From Candidatus Buchananbacteria bacterium RIFCSPHIGHO2_02_FULL_39_17 (GTDB lineage: Bacteria; Patescibacteriota; Patescibacteriia; Buchananbacterales; UBA6539): a stretch of 56,985 nt of DNA. Position numbers and translations under genes: made by a program. Shown in pieces: positions 4,388 through 12,462 of the stretch. Each line of letters starts with the position of its first letter. The stretch's first letter is position 1. The notes beneath the pieces are model-generated. The model was given only the letters and a program-made list of their open reading frames with translations. It had not been told where the DNA came from and searched no databases. The stretch covers positions 1 to 56,985 of the forward strand of contig MHII01000006.1 of the NCBI GenBank assembly GCA_001817425.1, in the 5' to 3' direction.

Positions 4388-4798
4388 TTAAATATCCTCT
4401 AATCTAAAAATCATTTGACTTAAAACTGCCTGCATCTTTGTTACTTCTTTATCAGTGATTAGATTCTGAACTCCTGGCCTTGATTTTTTCGCTTGGCTTG
4501 AGGCAGATGGAATTTTTGTTTCCTCTGGCTCTCTTGCTAAATCATTACCAACAAGCTCTCTCAAAATCTCATTAATATGAGTTAATTGTTCCACAAGAGA
4601 CTTACGAAAACGGTTATCGCTTAGACGAGCAACCCACCAGTGAAGACAGTCAGGTAAAAACCTAACCATCAACAAAACCAGAGGTTTTTTGCAAGCAGAA
4701 CAATGGAAAGCTGAAATATTAATACCAAGGAAATTGCTTAGATTAAATTGCATCAGCAAACCGCAATGTGGACAACGAAAATCAATCTGATTTTTCAT
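4388..4798 (-). CDS. zinc-ribbon protein, unknown function
   Basis: SD GGGAGGG lies 6 nt upstream of the ATG at 4798. CPHC and CSAC pairs are present. Confidence 0.55.
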   Translation of the reverse strand: MKNQIDFRCPHCGLLMQFNLSNFLGINISAFHCSACKKPLVLLMVRFLPDCLHWWVARLSDNRFRKSLVEQLTHINEILRELVGNDLAREPEETKIPSASSQAKKSRPGVQNLITDKEVTKMQAVLSQMIFRLEDI

Positions 4799-5054
4799 TT
4801 TCTGCCCTCCCGATGGTTTAACGTTCAAGGAACAAAAGATCTTAATTTTATTATAATATTAAATAATAAAAAAATCTACCCCCTTGACGAACTTAAATTT
4901 CCTGTGGTATTATGAAATTAAAAAATAATCAATAATCTAAAAAGTCCCCGGGGGGCTTTTTAAAATCCCGCAATTGATACCAATTACGGAATGATATAAA
5001 TAAATTCGTAGCATCTGAAGATTCGCATAAATTAGCAAATTAGCATTGTGTTTT

Positions 5055-5243
5055 ATGAATATTTCAAATAAAATCATAAACTACATTAAAGCTTCACAGC
5101 AAGAACTAAAAAAAGTCATTTGGCCTTCCCAAAAAGAGATCATCCAGCACACTTTATTAGTCATTGGCATTAGTCTTGGGGTATCAGTCTTTCTTGGAGT
5201 GATTGACTATATTTTAACCCTGATTTTAGAAGTTATCATTTAA
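5055..5243 (+). CDS. secE: preprotein translocase subunit SecE
   Basis: Small protein with ELKKVIWPSQKE followed by one TM helix, directly upstream of nusG. Confidence 0.85.
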   Translation: MNISNKIINYIKASQQELKKVIWPSQKEIIQHTLLVIGISLGVSVFLGVIDYILTLILEVII

Positions 5244-5346
5244 TAAATATGCCGCCATCAGGCGACTCAAAAATTTTAAATTCCCGCAAAAGGGATCAGT
5301 GGTTCCAACGGGACTTTACTGGTTTGATTTTTAAATTATTTAAGGT

Positions 5347-5892
5347 ATGCCTAAACAAACACTACAACAAGGTCGGCGCTGGTATGTGATTCATACTTAT
5401 TCCGGCTACGAAGAAAATGTCAAGCGTAATTTAGAACAAAGGACTGAATCAATGGATATGGAGGATAAAATTTTTAATGTTTTAATTCCGACTGAAAAAA
5501 AAATTAAAATTAAAAATGGCAAAAGAAAAGTGGTGACGGAAAAAATTTTCCCCGGTTATGTTTTAGTGGAAATGGTCGTTGACGATAACTCCTGGTACGT
5601 AGTGAGAAACACGCCAAATGTCACGGGCTTTATCGGCTCAGGCACCACCCCAACGCCAATCTCTGATCAAGAAATTAAAAATCTGCAAAAACGCATGGGC
5701 GTAGAGGAACCGACGTTTAAAATTGATGTCACGATCGGCGCGCCGGTCAGAATCGTTGACGGTCCATTTAAAGGCTACGAAGGCAAAGTTAATAAAATTG
5801 ATGAAGCCCGCGGCAAAATAAAAGTCTTAATTTCTATATTTGGCCGCGAAACCCCGGTAGAGCTTGATTTTCTACAAGTCAAAAAAATCTAA
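5347..5892 (+). CDS. nusG: transcription termination/antitermination factor NusG
   Basis: WYVIHTYSGYE, the NGN and KOW (GPFKGYEGKV) motifs, and the secE-nusG-rplK synteny. Confidence 0.95.
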   Translation: MPKQTLQQGRRWYVIHTYSGYEENVKRNLEQRTESMDMEDKIFNVLIPTEKKIKIKNGKRKVVTEKIFPGYVLVEMVVDDNSWYVVRNTPNVTGFIGSGTTPTPISDQEIKNLQKRMGVEEPTFKIDVTIGAPVRIVDGPFKGYEGKVNKIDEARGKIKVLISIFGRETPVELDFLQVKKI

Positions 5893-5985
5893 TATGATAC
5901 CAATTATACCAATCTACAAATAACATACCTTTATAAATTGTAGATTCGTAGATTAATATTCATTCGTAATTAGCATCATATTTAT

Positions 5986-6411
5986 ATGGCGAAAAAAATT
6001 AAAACTATAGTCAAAATTCAGATTCCAGGCGCTCAAGCTAACCCCGCGCCACCAGTCGGTCCGGCTTTAGGTCAGCATGGCTTAAATATTGCTGAATTCT
6101 GCCAAAAATTTAATGAACGAACAAAAGACCGACCAGGTGAATTAACTCCGGTTGAAGTCACGATCTATGAAGATCGCACTTATTCTTTTGCCACCAAAAC
6201 TTCACCCGCTTCGGAATTACTAAAAAAGGCGGCTAAAATTGAAAAAGGTTCTGGCGACATTTTGAAAAAAAAGGTAGGTAAAGTCACCAAAGCCCAAGTT
6301 CGAGAAATTGCCCAGAAAAAAATGCCGGATTTAAATGCGAAAAATTTAGCTGGGGCGATGAAGATAATAGAAGGTACGGCTAGACAAATGGGGCTAGAGA
6401 TTACTGATTAA
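5986..6411 (+). CDS. rplK: 50S ribosomal protein L11
   Basis: [24 protein letters not shown] motif. Confidence 0.97.
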
Positions 6412-7774: not shown

Positions 7775-8452
7775 ATGCGTTCAAAACGTTATTTAGAAAC
7801 TGTCAAAAAAATTGATAAGAATAAAACTTATCCGATCAATGAAGCCATTAAATTAATTAAGCAAACCGCAACCACCAAATTTGATGGTTCGATTGAGGTT
7901 CACTGCCACCTGGGGATTGACCCGGGTAAAAGCGAACAACAAGTCAGAGGCGTTGTCAGCTTGCCTTATGGTACCGGCAAAACCAAAAAAATTATTGCCT
8001 TTGTCGGTCCGGAACAAGAAAAAATCGCAAAAGCATCGGGCGCCGATATTATTGGCGGCACTGAATTAATTGACCAAATTAAAAACACCGGCAAAGTTGA
8101 TTTTGATATTGCTGTAGCCACGCCTGACTTAATGCCCAAACTCGCGGCGATTGCTAAAATTTTAGGTCCCAAAGGCTTAATGCCTTCGCCCAAAAATGAA
8201 ACCATTACCAAAAATTTAGAAAAAACAATCGCGGAATTAAAAAAAGGCAAAATCAATTTCAAAAGTGATGATACCGGAAATATCCATCAGGTCATCGGCA
8301 AAGTTTCCTTTGTTGAAAACCAGCTTGAAGAAAATTTCCGCACCCTTATCGAAGCCGTCAAAAAAGCAAAACCTGCTTCCGCGAAAGGAATTTATCTGCA
8401 GAATGTCAGTCTTTCTTCCTCAATGGGGCCGGGGATTAAAGTAGAAATATAA
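7775..8452 (+). CDS. rplA: 50S ribosomal protein L1
   Basis: Motifs FDGSIEVHCHLGIDP, VRGVVSLPYGTGK and LGPKGLMPSPK. Confidence 0.96.
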   Translation: MRSKRYLETVKKIDKNKTYPINEAIKLIKQTATTKFDGSIEVHCHLGIDPGKSEQQVRGVVSLPYGTGKTKKIIAFVGPEQEKIAKASGADIIGGTELIDQIKNTGKVDFDIAVATPDLMPKLAAIAKILGPKGLMPSPKNETITKNLEKTIAELKKGKINFKSDDTGNIHQVIGKVSFVENQLEENFRTLIEAVKKAKPASAKGIYLQNVSLSSSMGPGIKVEI

Positions 8453-8471
8453 ACTAATTTATATCAGAACT

Positions 8472-8498
8472 AACCCCGCCTAACTGGCGGGGTTTTAA
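8472..8498 (+). terminator. intrinsic terminator after rplA
   Basis: Stem CCCCGCC / GGCGGGG with loop TAACT, followed by TTTT. Confidence 0.75.
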
Positions 8499-8502
8499 TT
8501 AT

Positions 8503-8895
8503 TTAATGATCCTTACCAATCTTATTTTGCATCAACTGTTTTAGCTCAAAAGTATCAGCGTGCTGGCAAACTCCAAAATAAGATGAAAAATTGTGGCTGT
8601 TTATTCTGTACAAGAACCGATGTTTTGTTTTAGTTCGCAAAACGACACCATATGGCGAATGAACATAGCCGACAAAATCAATCCCCTGGCTCCAAGACCT
8701 AATGTTAATTTTGACCGGATGAATTTTTAATTTTAATTTCTCGTTTAAAAATACGCTAACTTTGGGAATAATGCTCAAAAGATAGTGACGAGATTGATTA
8801 ATAATTAAAAAATCATCGCAATACCTTAAGTACCATTTTTCTCTTAAGCTGTGCTTAATAAAATAATCAAGTTCATTTAAGATAAATATTAGCAA
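8503..8895 (-). CDS. DGR-type reverse transcriptase, C-terminal part (motif 5 YCDD, thumb)
   Basis: Contains NELDYFIKH...RYCDDFLII and GIDFVGY. It continues the upstream ORF if one A of the AAA run (plus-strand TTT at 8876-8878) is removed. Confidence 0.85.
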   Translation of the reverse strand: MLIFILNELDYFIKHSLREKWYLRYCDDFLIINQSRHYLLSIIPKVSVFLNEKLKLKIHPVKINIRSWSQGIDFVGYVHSPYGVVLRTKTKHRFLYRINSHNFSSYFGVCQHADTFELKQLMQNKIGKDH

Positions 8896-9571
8896 AAAGT
8901 TGACTTGTCAAATTACCAAGTGGCAGACCTTTGTTCGGCGCCTTAGAAAAACTACCAATAATATGCCTTAACAGTTTAATTGTTTTTTCGTCTTTAATTT
9001 GGCAGCAAATAAAATCTAAAAGAATATTATGGTCAATGCTGTCAAAAAATTTGCTGACATCACACTTTAAAGCATAAATAGTTTTAGTGTTATTCTGGCT
9101 AGCTTTTGACAAAAAATCACGCAGGCGATAGGAAGCGCCGTGAATGCCCTTGCCAATTCGGCAGGAAAAGCTATTAAAAATAAATCGTTTTTCAAAAATT
9201 GGCTCAATAATGTTGACTACGGCCTGATGGACAATTCTATCTTTTACCGTGGTTTTATGAATTTGGCGCTTTTTAGGATCATAAACAATAAAAGGCTGAT
9301 ATTTACCATGGCAATAATTTTGATTTTTTAATTCAGCCTGTAGATTAAAAAGATTCTCTTCTAAATTTCTTTCATAAATCATTACATCTCGGCGAGAGTG
9401 TTTGCTTTTGGCAAACTTATACCAAGCTAAAAAAACATTTTCTAGGAAGAAAATTTTATCATAAAGCGATTTACTGGTATAATTATTATTACCATGACCC
9501 AAAATGATTTTATTAATCCCCCCCCCAACGGGTCTTACGGAAAAAGCATGCTGGATATTCCGATTATTCAT
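8873..9571 (-). CDS. DGR-type reverse transcriptase, N-terminal part (motifs 1-4), ending at a frameshift
   Basis: Contains DPKKRQIHKTTVKDRIVHQAV, KCDVSKFFDSIDH and the motif-4 sequence GLPLGNLTSQ ([ILV]GxxxSQ, the DGR hallmark). The start is uncertain because it overlaps the divergent avd. Confidence 0.85.
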   Translation of the reverse strand: MNNRNIQHAFSVRPVGGGINKIILGHGNNNYTSKSLYDKIFFLENVFLAWYKFAKSKHSRRDVMIYERNLEENLFNLQAELKNQNYCHGKYQPFIVYDPKKRQIHKTTVKDRIVHQAVVNIIEPIFEKRFIFNSFSCRIGKGIHGASYRLRDFLSKASQNNTKTIYALKCDVSKFFDSIDHNILLDFICCQIKDEKTIKLLRHIIGSFSKAPNKGLPLGNLTSQLFANIYLK

Positions 9572-9889
9572 CTGCTTTATGATTTTTATAAATTATGGCA
9601 CAAAGTTAGTTTAAACTTCCCTAAATCCCAGCGCTACACCCTAGGGCAAATCTGCGGCACTGATTTGTTACTGCTTTTAAAAAATATCTTGGCCGCTTCG
9701 GCAACCAAAGATCGAAAAATAAAATTAGAAAAACTGCGCCAGGCCAGCATCAAGCTTGATCTGATAAAAATTCTTATCAGGTTAGCTAAAGACTGCGACT
9801 GCCTACAAAATAAATCATATTTAGAGCTTCAGTCAAAACTCCATGGTATCGGCAAGATGCTTGGCGGCTGGATTAAATCTCTTGAATAA
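9548..9889 (+). CDS. avd: four-helix-bundle protein, Avd-like (23S rRNA IVS protein family)
   Basis: PKSQRYTLGQ and ...LHGIGKMLGGWIKSL are typical of this family. It is adjacent to the RT and TR but on the opposite strand. Confidence 0.75.
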   Translation: MLDIPIIHLLYDFYKLWHKVSLNFPKSQRYTLGQICGTDLLLLLKNILAASATKDRKIKLEKLRQASIKLDLIKILIRLAKDCDCLQNKSYLELQSKLHGIGKMLGGWIKSLE

Positions 9890-9942
9890 AAATTTACACA
9901 AACACCCGGTAAATTAACCGAGTGTTTGCTATTTTTGGCAAG

Positions 9943-10076
9943 CATTCCCAAAGACAGGAACCGCCCGGTGGCCGTGACGATTAGAAGCGTCGTCGGCCTT
10001 GAGCTTGACTTGACGATTATCGCAATTCCAGTTCAAGTTCGGCACGTATGACCAAGGCTGGTTGCCCGAAACAGAT
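9943..10076 (-). repeat. DGR template repeat (TR)
   Basis: Non-coding copy of the VR. On the minus strand it carries AAY codons at the positions that differ in the VR. Confidence 0.85.
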
Positions 10077-10103
10077 TAAATATTTCTATTCTTCCATTGC
10101 ACC

Positions 10104-10125
10104 GGACACAGGCGCACCCGTGTCC
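10104..10125. promoter_or_regulatory. GC-rich hairpin flanking the TR
   Basis: GGACAC-A-GG CGCA CC-C-GTGTCC, 28 nt from the TR end. Confidence 0.5.
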
Positions 10126-10398
10126 TGAATTTTATGCAAGATATAAGCTTGAAGCTTTATCTTAAAATAGAAATACGGAGTGCTTTACCATTGCTCTGCT
10201 CTCTTTTGACCGCCAACAGAAGCAGCCAAAACTTTGACAGATAAATGCAAGATAAAAAATTTCGGCGATTCCGATTCTTAAACCGGAATTCATAAGCCTA
10301 CTCTTTCGGTAATAATTATAGCATAATAAAAACAGGGTTTGAAGACCAAGATCCAAAAACCTTGAATTTCCAAACCCCAAAAGGCCAAGTACCGAATA

Positions 10399-11175
10399 CT
10401 AACACTCCACAAAGACAGGAACCGCCCGGTGGTAGTGACGAATAGAAGCGTCGTCGGCACTGAGCCTGACTTGACGACACCCGTAATGCCAGCACAAGTC
10501 CGGCACGTACGACCAAGGCTGGCTGCCCGAAATAGATAGCTGATAGCCAGGCAACCAGACGAACGGCACTTTGACGCCGTCCATTGCCTGTATCCACCGG
10601 GGGAAACAAGATGCCGCCCACAAGATTGCCGAAGGCAGCGAGGTTTTAGGAGTATGGACAGTTGGAGCAATGCCGTCTTTCTTATCCCAGTTGGCGGCGA
10701 AGTCAACTACTCGCCAGTGCAAACCGCGCTGATGAATAATGCCATCGAGCAACTTGAGATGATTTTCGTCGGACTTTACCTCGGGCCAGCGCCATTCACC
10801 TGGCTGAACCGCTTTGGTGAAATACCAGCCTTCTTCAAAAGTCCGGCTAACCGTGTCCAAAGACACATCCAGCACGACGGCGCAAAGATAGCCATCTGGC
10901 CAGGCCGGTGGCGGGCCAAGCGCTTCAAAGTCGGCTTCGGTAAAACCCCAATGGCGCTCGGCATTGCGCTGTCTGGTCAGTTCAAGTTGTTTTTCCGGCG
11001 GGATGAAAAACGACCGTCGGTCAATCAGCTTTGACACCTCCCGCATCACCTCGTCGGGATTAAGCGAGCCTTTACGGACGCGCTCAAACACATCGTGCTG
11101 GTGGCGGGCAAATTCGCCCAGCTTATCATCGGTGGGCACTACTCTTTTTTCGTCCGCGACAATTTCGGTTGTCAT
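10399..11175 (-). CDS. DGR target protein with a C-terminal variable region
   Basis: 258-aa GC-rich ORF. The last ~45 codons are the VR (...SGSQPWSYVPDLCWHYGCRQVRLSADDASIRHYHRAVPVFVEC). Confidence 0.8.
   Translation of the reverse strand: MTTEIVADEKRVVPTDDKLGEFARHQHDVFERVRKGSLNPDEVMREVSKLIDRRSFFIPPEKQLELTRQRNAERHWGFTEADFEALGPPPAWPDGYLCAVVLDVSLDTVSRTFEEGWYFTKAVQPGEWRWPEVKSDENHLKLLDGIIHQRGLHWRVVDFAANWDKKDGIAPTVHTPKTSLPSAILWAASCFPRWIQAMDGVKVPFVWLPGYQLSISGSQPWSYVPDLCWHYGCRQVRLSADDASIRHYHRAVPVFVEC
10403..10537 (-). repeat. DGR variable repeat (VR) at the 3' end of the target gene
   Basis: The 127-bp core 10411-10537 aligns without gaps to 9950-10076 with 18 mismatches. Twelve of them are at TR adenines on the minus strand. 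Confidence 0.85.
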
Positions 11176-11332
11176 GACAAATCCTCCTTATCCTTATTTG
11201 ACTGTCTTACAACCGGCAAGACTACGGTTTCTCTACTTTAGAGAATAATTAATTATATCATAAATTATTAATTTGTCAAGTCATAAATAATCTGCTAAAA
11301 TACATAGACATTACTAATCATAAATACTAATT

Positions 11333-11830
11333 ATGACCGAAAAAAGAAAAGATTATTTAAACTGGGACGAGTGTTTCATCCAAATCGCTTTTGTCATGGC
11401 CCAGCGTTCAAAAGATCCTTCGACTCAGGCCGGCGCCGTCGTGGTTGACCAAGATAATATTGTCGTTGGTTTAGGTTACAACGGCTTCCCCCGCGGCTGC
11501 ACGGACGAAAATTTCCCTTGGTCGCGCGAAGGTGATTTTTTAGAAACTAAATACGCCTATGTCGTCCACGCCGAAGAAAATGCGATTTATAACGCTAATA
11601 AGCAGACCAACGGATGCAAAGTCTATACAACCATGTTTCCTTGCAATGAATGCGTCAAAACTTTAATCCAAAGCGGTATCGCTGAAATTATTTATGCTTC
11701 GGATAAATACCATGACCAGCCAGCCTGGCAGGCTGGCCGAAAAATGCTTGAAGCCGCCGGCGTCAAATATCGCCAGTATCAACCTCAATTTAATTTAAAT
11801 TTGAAAAAAATTGACCCCATTAGACATTAA
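11333..11830 (+). CDS. dCMP deaminase (ComEB/Dcd family cytidine/deoxycytidylate deaminase)
   Basis: HAEENA and PCNECVKTLIQSG zinc-binding motifs. Confidence 0.9.
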   Translation: MTEKRKDYLNWDECFIQIAFVMAQRSKDPSTQAGAVVVDQDNIVVGLGYNGFPRGCTDENFPWSREGDFLETKYAYVVHAEENAIYNANKQTNGCKVYTTMFPCNECVKTLIQSGIAEIIYASDKYHDQPAWQAGRKMLEAAGVKYRQYQPQFNLNLKKIDPIRH

Positions 11831-11895
11831 CTTAATTTTGTGTGATACCTCATAACAAATACTAATAATAAAATTTTAAATTCTAAAAATCCATT

Positions 11896-12462
11896 ATGTC
11901 TAACGGGGTGAATAAAATTATTTTAGGTTTTGTCGGTCCTCTCGCTTCCGGTAAAGGCGCAATTTGTCAGTATTTAAAAGAAAAACACGGAGCATCGGTT
12001 TTTCGCTTTTCCACTATGCTTCGTGATGTTTTAAATCGGCTTTATTTAGAAATCAGCCGCGACAATATGCAAAATCTTTCTTCGGCTTTAAGGCAGACTT
12101 TTGGTGATGATTTATTGGCTTCAGTAATCGCTAATGATGTTAAAAATGAAAAAAATGAATTTATTGTCATTGATGGCGTGAGGCGTGAACCCGACATTAA
12201 ATATTTAAAAGATTTCCCCAATTTCTACTTAATTGAAATAAAAGCTGACCAAAAAATTCGCTGGGAACGGATGAGAAAGCGCGGTGAAAATACCGACGAT
12301 AACACCAAAACTTTTGCTGAGTTTAAAAAAGACGAACAAAGAGAAGCGGAAAAAAATATTTCAGACGTAGCTAAGTTAGCTAAGTTTAAAATTGATAATA
12401 GCGGCACGTTAGCAGAGCTATATCGGCAAATGGAAAATATCTTAAAAAAATTCAAATTTTAA
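11896..12462 (+). CDS. P-loop nucleoside/deoxynucleoside monophosphate kinase-like protein
   Basis: Walker A GPLASGKG. The size and the dNMP-metabolism neighbourhood fit. Specificity is unknown. Confidence 0.5.
   Translation: MSNGVNKIILGFVGPLASGKGAICQYLKEKHGASVFRFSTMLRDVLNRLYLEISRDNMQNLSSALRQTFGDDLLASVIANDVKNEKNEFIVIDGVRREPDIKYLKDFPNFYLIEIKADQKIRWERMRKRGENTDDNTKTFAEFKKDEQREAEKNISDVAKLAKFKIDNSGTLAELYRQMENILKKFKF

Follow-up and report, generated by a model that had tools for sequence, protein, structure and literature searches.

Diversity-generating retroelements (DGRs) of the Candidate Phyla Radiation (CPR, Patescibacteria) were reportedly first surveyed by Paul et al. in 2017. They correspond to "DGR clade 2" of Roux et al. 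(2021; PMC8144416), and 90% of them display the architecture B3, almost never found elsewhere, in which the target gene is followed by the template repeat (TR), an avd gene on the opposite strand and the reverse transcriptase (RT) gene, that is, target→TR→(avd)→RT (Wu et al., 2018; PMC5758913). The experimental prototype, the DGR of Bordetella phage BPP-1, is arranged as mtd-avd-TR-brt. Here we analyzed a contig of 56,985 nucleotides (hereafter the window, meaning the whole 57-kb stretch), which, judging from the source name of the target protein, belongs to a Candidatus Buchananbacteria genome (CPR, Patescibacteria) of the Rifle groundwater series. The locus at positions 8503-11175 is a genuine chromosomal DGR of the already catalogued CPR B3 kind. 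The initial annotation of the window had called a DGR cassette here, and this call is upheld by an adenine-biased pair of TR and variable repeat (VR), an RT of the DGR clade, an Avd protein, the position of the VR at the 3' end of a gene and the recurrence of the same cassette in at least 12 related loci, where mismatches fall almost purely at adenines. The element had, however, been treated as an intact standard one, which it is not: the RT gene is frameshifted and avd is inverted. We put at about three in four the probability that this CPR-clade chromosomal DGR has stopped working in this genome, the cassette in the window probably being a decaying copy.

Along the minus strand, the locus consists of the target gene with its C-terminal VR, a YTYGG-rich putative terminator hairpin, a promoter-like site, a structured leader RNA, the TR, a hairpin, the reversed avd and the RT gene. 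The TR (10076→9950, minus strand), avd (9548-9889, plus strand) and RT (9571→8503, minus strand) follow the core order of B3, TR-(avd on the reverse strand)-RT, and, because this arrangement is typical of CPR DGRs, the inversion of avd is a known lineage trait and not an anomaly. The window shares with the CPR B3 elements the host group, the gene order with reversed avd, an RT clade with thousands of patescibacterial members and a target without annotated domain, as in the unassigned variable-repeat (UVR) classes of the CPR, whereas this copy stands apart in its frameshifted RT, in a TR depleted of adenines and in a proportion of non-adenine mismatches that is unusually high. Like BPP-1, the locus has an RT homologous to bRT (1.2e-41) with the motif 4 I/LGxxxSQLFAN, together with Avd, a four-helix-bundle protein, as its partner. 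In both systems the target gene carries a VR of ~130 nt at its 3' end, the TR is rich in AAY codons, and the 3' end of the VR has a tract rich in guanine and cytosine (GC), with a hairpin further downstream; in contrast to BPP-1, the element in the window is chromosomal and not phage-borne. The coding parts and the repeats of the cassette are as follows.

10399..11175, minus strand: target (variable protein) gene, 258 aa, with no Pfam or NCBIfam family.
10411..10537, minus strand: VR, the last ~45 codons of the target (repeat finder and our own alignment).
10410..10432, minus strand: 3' end of the VR, CCACCGGGCGGTTCCTGTCTTTG, resembling an initiation-of-mutagenic-homing (IMH) site; identical in the TR at 9949-9971, with a putative function by analogy with BPP-1.
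9950..10076, minus strand: TR (repeat finder and our own alignment).
9548..9889, plus strand: avd (accessory variability determinant), on the strand opposite to RT, TR and target; alternative start at 9494.
8873..9571, minus strand: N-terminal open reading frame (ORF) of the RT, 232 aa, matching RVT_1 profile positions 8-134 and ending in ...LGNLTSQLFANIYLK before the stop codon.
8876..8878, minus strand: frameshift site AAA; AA at this place would read ...ANIYLNELDYF...
8503..8895, minus strand: C-terminal ORF of the RT, 130 aa, in another frame, matching RVT_1 profile positions 138-203 and carrying YCDD and the thumb.

A repeat finder run over positions 8000-12000 returned one long direct repeat, 9949-10076 against 10410-10537 (128 nt, 86% identity, ungapped), and no further TR-like copy is present in the 57-kb window. 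Counted on the minus strand, 9950-10076 and 10411-10537 align without gaps over 127 nt and differ at 18 positions, 12 of which are adenines in the TR; the TR has 27 adenines in total (21% of its length), and the bias is significant in binomial (p = 4.3e-5) and Fisher (p = 6.8e-6) tests. These are exactly the counts given in the initial annotation, which was also right in placing the VR in the last ~45 codons of the minus-strand ORF 10399..11175 and in reading the six AAY codons of the TR as S, D, C, H, C and I in the VR. In the VR frame, 24 of the 27 TR adenines occupy codon positions 1 and 2, and the translations are ...SGNQPWSYVPNLNWNCDNRQVKLKADDASNRHGHRAVPVF for the TR and ...SGSQPWSYVPDLCWHYGCRQVRLSADDASIRHYHRAVPVF for the VR. 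The six remaining mismatches (TR>VR) are 10072 G>A, 10023 G>A, 10019 T>G, 9998 G>T, 9973 G>T and 9972 G>A. A tract of 11 nt made up of G and C only and a block of 23 identical nt close the homology, the TR and VR diverging from 9948/10409 onward, and a long hairpin lies 30-80 nt downstream of the VR. The differences at 9972-73, once proposed to mark where IMH and IMH* would differ, do not do so, because their position is 5' of the GC tract and TR and VR are identical over the 23 bases that come next.

The RT carries LPLGNLTSQLFAN, which conforms to the DGR motif 4 pattern [LIV]GxxxSQ. Both motifs reported earlier, LGNLTSQ and YCDD, are present, but LGNLTSQ falls in the ORF 8873-9571 and YCDD in the ORF 8503-8895, a 1-nt frameshift lying between the two. 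The intact RT frame expected of a putatively functional DGR is therefore lacking, the gene being split by a 1-nt insertion between RT motifs 4 and 5; deletion of one A from the AAA at 8876-8878 yields a continuous RT of 355 aa. When the repaired protein was compared with PDB, the best match was the Bordetella bRT (8ub7; 1.2e-41, 146 bits), group II intron RTs reaching 76 bits, so the nearest solved relative is a DGR enzyme. At least 6,987 RT homologues were retrieved at E ≤ 1e-40, mostly from Patescibacteria. The top NCBIfam match of the RT fragments is group_II_RT_mat, at 88 bits against a cutoff of 300, and the retron St85 model scores 23 against 235. Rfam detected neither a group II intron RNA nor a retron RNA in the window. 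With scores below the family cutoffs and no cognate Rfam RNA, identification as a group II intron or retron RT was rejected.

The frameshift is real and fixed. The same cttAAAtga occurs in 2 separately assembled contigs, L332 and L333, which are 99.88% and 99.93% identical to the window and both record the truncated 232-aa product; one of them derives from an Anantharaman-2016 sample assembly and the other from a MEGAHIT assembly. Because the AAA is identical in 3 contigs that come from different assemblies and assemblers, and that differ from one another at 1-2 other positions, an assembly error is not the cause. The RT is a single ORF in the five relatives examined for this (L006, L009, L010, L013 and L015), that of L007 not having been confirmed as such, and the homologues listed measure ~290-400 aa. 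Reading UGA as Gly (genetic code 25) does not rescue the gene, since the frame, as read from the sequence, still stops a few codons further on. The contig L332 (ENA ERZ28563591, 1849 nt) is 99.9% identical to window positions 8076-9726 and, from window position 9726, inside avd, turns to unrelated sequence (L332:1-198); it represents a population variant with the 3' half of avd, the TR and the target replaced, or else a chimeric assembly.

The accessory gene avd lies next to the TR and RT. Its product matches Pfam bAvd (1e-17, 65 bits, cutoff 40) and, just under the cutoff of 80, NCBIfam DivGenRetAVD (4.5e-20, 72 bits). The description of ORF 9548..9889 as Avd-like was thus sound, but its strand had been missed: the gene runs on the plus strand, opposite to RT, TR and target.

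To place this copy among its relatives, we compared loci recovered through the target and through the RT. The layout target→TR→(avd)→RT recurs in L006/L011, L007, L009, L010, L013 and L015, found via the target, and in L334, L337 and L338, found via the RT and carrying targets of the same family; L002 and L012, both truncated by the ends of their contigs, contain a target and a TR, with an avd match only in L012. In nine relatives with a TR, 0-1 of the 9-20 mismatches per locus fall outside adenines (3 of 153 pooled), as against 5-6 of 17-18 in the window (Fisher p of 4e-5 to 3e-4), so that the adenine bias of the window is weaker than that of its relatives. The TR itself has been depleted as well, retaining 6 AAY codons compared with 9-12 in the relatives. 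At four canonical Asn positions, the TR of the window reads TAC, GAC, CAC and CAC (Tyr, Asp, His and His), identical to its own VR, and at a fifth it has AAG (Lys) opposite AGT in the VR. This pattern suggests that the TR has been eroded by VR-to-TR gene conversion or by self-homing, lowering its mutagenic capacity.

Changes were polarized using the VR of L001, the closest relative, which is syntenic and shares 81% protein identity. On this comparison, 10072, 10023 and 10019 look like changes in the VR of the window and 9998 like a change in the TR (AAY→AAG). The VRs of L001 and the window differ mainly at positions that are A in the TR, and the VRs of the orphan targets L001, L003 and L008 differ from those of relatives at the canonical variable positions. 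Successive stages of loss are represented: L004 and L005 have no RT, L023 retains a 65-nt remnant of the leader, and L001, L003, L008 and L014 are bare targets. L004 (6001-8020) and L005 contain target, leader, TR and reversed avd, with no RT within 6 kb and hrcA following directly. All 16 TR/VR mismatches of L004 are nevertheless at adenines, which implies either that the RT was lost very recently or that an RT acts in trans.

Several relatives depart from the common layout. L004 has a second Avd-like gene (23S_rRNA_IVP) upstream, at 4647-5087, and two tandem paralogous targets are served by one TR in L006:4908-6858 (also in L011) and L337:1188-3032. In L338, a divergent target of the same family (5201-6004, minus strand) lies downstream of the RT, on the strand opposite to that of the leader, TR, (avd) and RT. 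L006 adjoins phage-like genes for a terminase, a ParB-methylase and an S24 peptidase, and part of the DGR lineage may therefore be phage- or prophage-borne.

The 334-nt "spacer" between VR and TR, passed over in the initial annotation, contains a promoter-like site and a structured RNA of about 230-250 nt, which shows strong covariation and is conserved in 12 related cassettes. The signals and noncoding elements of the cassette are the following.

11252..11279, minus strand: sigma-70-like promoter of the target, TTGACA-16-TATAAT, 12/12 matches.
10318..10398, minus strand: YTYGG element after the VR, with about six YTYGG motifs 8-12 nt apart that lead into a long hairpin and a T-run.
10315..10343, minus strand: promoter-like site, TTCAAA-17-TATAAT with a TG extension, just upstream of the conserved RNA start.
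10077..10305, minus strand: structured leader RNA directly 5' of the TR, with 8 helices.
9898..9929, minus strand: post-TR hairpin of 13 bp, located 20 nt downstream of the TR, abutting the avd stop codon and bearing T-runs on both strands.
9456-9483: promoter-like site at the avd gene.

In all cassettes, a TATAAT-type -10 box is followed by the conserved RNA start GAGAGTAGGYTYATGAAY, and the leader contains the invariant motifs GAGTAGG, TCRCCGAAAT, ACTCCGT and ATAAAATWCA, between which lie hairpins of variable sequence. Analysis of nine loci with RNAalifold yielded 50 pairs in 8 helices, 39 of the 50 with compensatory changes. Paired cells amounted to 95.3%, compared with 40-53% when the partners were slid by 1-3 columns, and none of 500 shuffles attained the observed pairing values on any measure. 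The structure was retained, with 46 pairs and 33 compensatory, in a twelve-locus alignment to which 3 RT-selected loci had been added. Rfam 15 gave no match at gathering thresholds over the whole window, and a search of 9850-10450 at E ≤ 10 returned only chance matches to LhrC and U4. Pattern scans for the leader in metagenome contigs and in viral contigs retrieved 120 stretches each, but the nhmmer profile of the leader recognized none of them, and they are therefore regarded as chance matches. A 72-aa ORF at 10162-10380 was discarded as a gene, as it overlaps the conserved structured RNA and matches no family. The post-TR hairpin is terminator-like when read on either strand, and we infer that the DGR RNA spans ~10305 to ~9895, including the leader, TR and hairpin.

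In this respect, the locus differs from BPP-1. It has no room for a spacer RNA of the BPP-1 type 3' of the TR (the region of the RT-10 motif; Weinberg, 2017) and instead has a covarying structured RNA of ~230 nt 5' of the TR. By analogy, this leader may take the scaffold role that belongs to the flanking avd and spacer RNA in BPP-1. RNAalifold also predicted a long-range pairing of 3 bp between the GCCAGA motif of the leader and the first bases of the TR (alignment A4, columns 96-98/306-308). Such a pairing could place the leader beside the end of cDNA synthesis but, with few compensatory changes, it is too weak for a claim to this effect. The YTYGG element is conserved in 14 loci (alignment A5), including those with orphan targets, and its stem shows some covariation. 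The hairpin is probably the terminator of the target gene; it may also be the counterpart of the BPP-1 homing hairpin/cruciform, a target-site structure of the DGR, and the YTYGG motifs could form either an array bound by a protein or part of such a target-site structure.

The VR lies within the 3' end of the target gene, and the hypervariable columns of the family alignment coincide exactly with the VR, interleaved with conserved scaffold positions of the C-terminus (W, VP, L.W, R, AVP). Because the protein has neither a transmembrane segment nor a signal peptide (maximum hydropathy 1.01), it is probably cytoplasmic. An alignment with its 31 close homologues was used for AlphaFold2, which modeled the whole target with a mean predicted local distance difference test score (pLDDT) of 91.5 and a predicted template modeling score (pTM) of 0.80, and the C-terminal domain alone (residues 86-258) with 95.5 and 0.90, respectively. 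In the models, the VR forms a beta-hairpin (residues 223-242) and short C-terminal strands. The initial annotation had anticipated a C-type-lectin/FGE-like fold here, and this expectation was not borne out by the searches. Foldseek comparison of both models with PDB gave best E values of 0.95 and 1.1 and template modeling scores of at most 0.16, and the best E value against BFVD was 0.61. The target profile found only noise among PDB sequences (haemagglutinin HA2 at E ≥ 0.13, on the N-terminal helices), and Pfam searches over the 31 family members at E ≤ 1 produced scattered single matches, none to FGE-sulfatase or a lectin. PDB includes the C-type-lectin DGR proteins Mtd, TvpA, AvpA and TaqVP. 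Since neither of the two confident models matched PDB despite the presence of these proteins, a lectin/FGE fold is not supported.

Display of the VR on a C-type-lectin (or immunoglobulin-like) domain is typical of DGRs and is not strictly defining. The target shares with the C-type-lectin variable proteins Mtd, TvpA, archaeal AvpA and TaqVP the location of the variable residues in the last ~45, but no similarity to them in sequence or fold is detectable; its apparent cytoplasmic location and the lack of a C-type-lectin fold also distinguish it from the target of BPP-1. In the current view, a systematic link exists between annotated VRs and C-type-lectin folds (Roux et al., 2021; PMC8144416), and six VR classes of the CPR were left unassigned (Wu et al., 2018; PMC5758913). 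The target family may be one of these classes, UVR1-6. The lack of a detectable lectin fold is one of three findings that the initial annotation had named as speaking against a DGR, but it is outweighed by the evidence from the RT and from the TR/VR pair.

A profile search with the target collected 1,059 clusters at 50% identity. About 65 genome loci with homologues belong to Actinomycetota (contigs of metagenome-assembled genomes, L017-L086). None of these ~65 loci has an RT or Avd within 5 kb of the homologue, no TR-like repeat was found in any of the 56 actinomycetotal loci scanned, and their neighborhoods show no conserved synteny and give no clue to function. The C-terminus is conserved among the actinobacterial members of the alignment, and a neighbor-joining tree separates 16 CPR-type sequences cleanly from 69 actinobacterial ones. 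The base composition of the target is also distinctive. In the window, its GC content is 0.55, compared with 0.38 in the flanks, and the GC content at third codon positions is 0.61, compared with 0.29-0.42 for RT, rplA and avd. The gene exceeds its flanks by ~6-28 GC points at every CPR locus examined, whereas in Actinomycetota the GC content of the homologue is in line with that of the genome. Because the target is a GC-rich outlier in CPR, the simplest reading is horizontal acquisition, and the composition suggests that the donor was a high-GC organism.

By analogy with BPP-1, an RT-Avd complex would bind the ~400-nt leader-TR RNA, the TR would be reverse transcribed with misincorporation opposite adenines, and the resulting cDNA would replace the VR, recoding ~10-12 codons on the C-terminal beta-hairpin of a cytoplasmic protein. 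In this genome, the TR has lost several AAY codons, and TR and VR would have accumulated ordinary non-A substitutions since the last homing event. A number of points weigh against a DGR that has fallen silent. Present inactivity is, first of all, inferred. The frameshift appears young, because the C-terminal RT ORF is fully open and its motifs are conserved, yet a non-A divergence of 5-6% suggests a longer period, so that the agreement between the two clocks is loose. The RT might work as a split enzyme or be restored by a +1 ribosomal shift at AAA-UGA, and another RT encoded outside this locus in the same genome could act in trans; L004 shows that either trans action or very recent loss does occur in the clade. 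A target domain without a detectable C-type-lectin fold in PDB or BFVD is, moreover, unusual for a DGR. Finally, CPR DGRs often carry several non-A substitutions (Wu et al., 2018; PMC5758913), and part of the non-A excess could therefore reflect infidelity of the RT.

Three alternatives were weighed against the decaying element. A fully functional DGR, in which the frameshift is a sequencing or assembly error, is bypassed by a +1 shift at CUU-AAA-UGA or is tolerated because the two RT fragments assemble, would account for the intact downstream ORF of 130 codons with its conserved YCDD and thumb motifs and for the intact avd, leader RNA, TR, promoters and target. The in-frame UGA directly after the AAA run would also suit it, as this is a context able to promote +1 slippage. 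We nevertheless consider it unlikely, as the AAA is present in 3 contigs from different assemblies and assemblers, no gene is split or shifted at this site in the other RTs examined or the homologues listed, no Shine-Dalgarno-like sequence precedes the TTG of the second RT ORF, and disuse is indicated independently by the surplus of non-A mismatches and by the erosion of the TR. Somewhat less probable still is that the RT in cis is dead and that another DGR RT of the genome recognizes the leader-TR RNA and continues to diversify the target. The adenine-only mismatches (16/16) in L004, where, as in L005, no RT lies within 6 kb of the retained target, leader, TR and avd, and the variation of the orphan targets L001, L003 and L008 at canonical variable positions speak in its favor. 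Against this, no second RT or TR was found in the 57-kb window, frequent homing would keep non-A mismatches and losses of AAY codons from accumulating, and CPR genomes are small and usually have few RTs.

The third alternative denies that the locus is a DGR and regards the TR as a degenerate copy of part of the target's 3' end that happens to adjoin the RT of a group II intron, a retron or a defense system. One third of the mismatches are indeed at non-adenines, the top NCBIfam match of the RT fragments is a group II intron RT/maturase model, and the target lacks a known DGR-target fold. This explanation is, however, effectively refuted by the comparative data, the arrangement recurring in at least 12 loci, whose differences are nearly all of the A-to-N kind; in addition, the group II match stays at 88 bits against a cutoff of 300, the score with Bordetella bRT is twice that of any group II RT, Rfam finds no group II intron or retron RNA, an Avd gene is adjacent, and the adenine bias has p = 4e-5. 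A decaying chromosomal DGR of the CPR clade remains our preferred reading of the locus.

The neighbors of the cassette are cellular genes. rplA (ribosomal protein L1, identified by translation; 7775-8494) converges on the 3' end of the RT and has a strong terminator hairpin at 8472-8494, and further ORFs resemble dCMP deaminase and dUTPase, both of which Pfam confirms in L001, the syntenic relative. The window has no tRNA genes. Ribosomal protein genes have been reported between the DGR genes of several CPR elements (Wu et al., 2018; PMC5758913).

A DGR in a CPR genome is in itself ordinary, such elements having been surveyed in 2017-2021 from the same groundwater dataset. The series of loci around a single target family, from intact through frameshifted and RT-less cassettes to a leader remnant and bare targets, shows how a DGR is lost. 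The possible non-lectin variable domain is a concrete candidate for structure determination, and the covarying RNA 5' of the TR, absent from Rfam, provides a handle on how DGRs with reversed avd assemble and prime cDNA synthesis. Follow-up is deserved by three features of the lineage as a whole, namely the leader RNA 5' of the TR, the fold of the target, which does not resemble a lectin, and the anomalous GC content of this target, whose family is shared with Actinomycetota. Tentatively, and at somewhat less than even odds, we read them jointly: a large CPR lineage of DGRs would have acquired a new, non-lectin fold by horizontal gene transfer, from a family of ~1,000 clusters that is an ordinary, non-diversified protein in Actinomycetota, and would use a template RNA organized by a 5' leader. 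If this is correct, both features would be undescribed for the DGRs studied, and the RT-Avd complex of this lineage would be recruited and primed differently.

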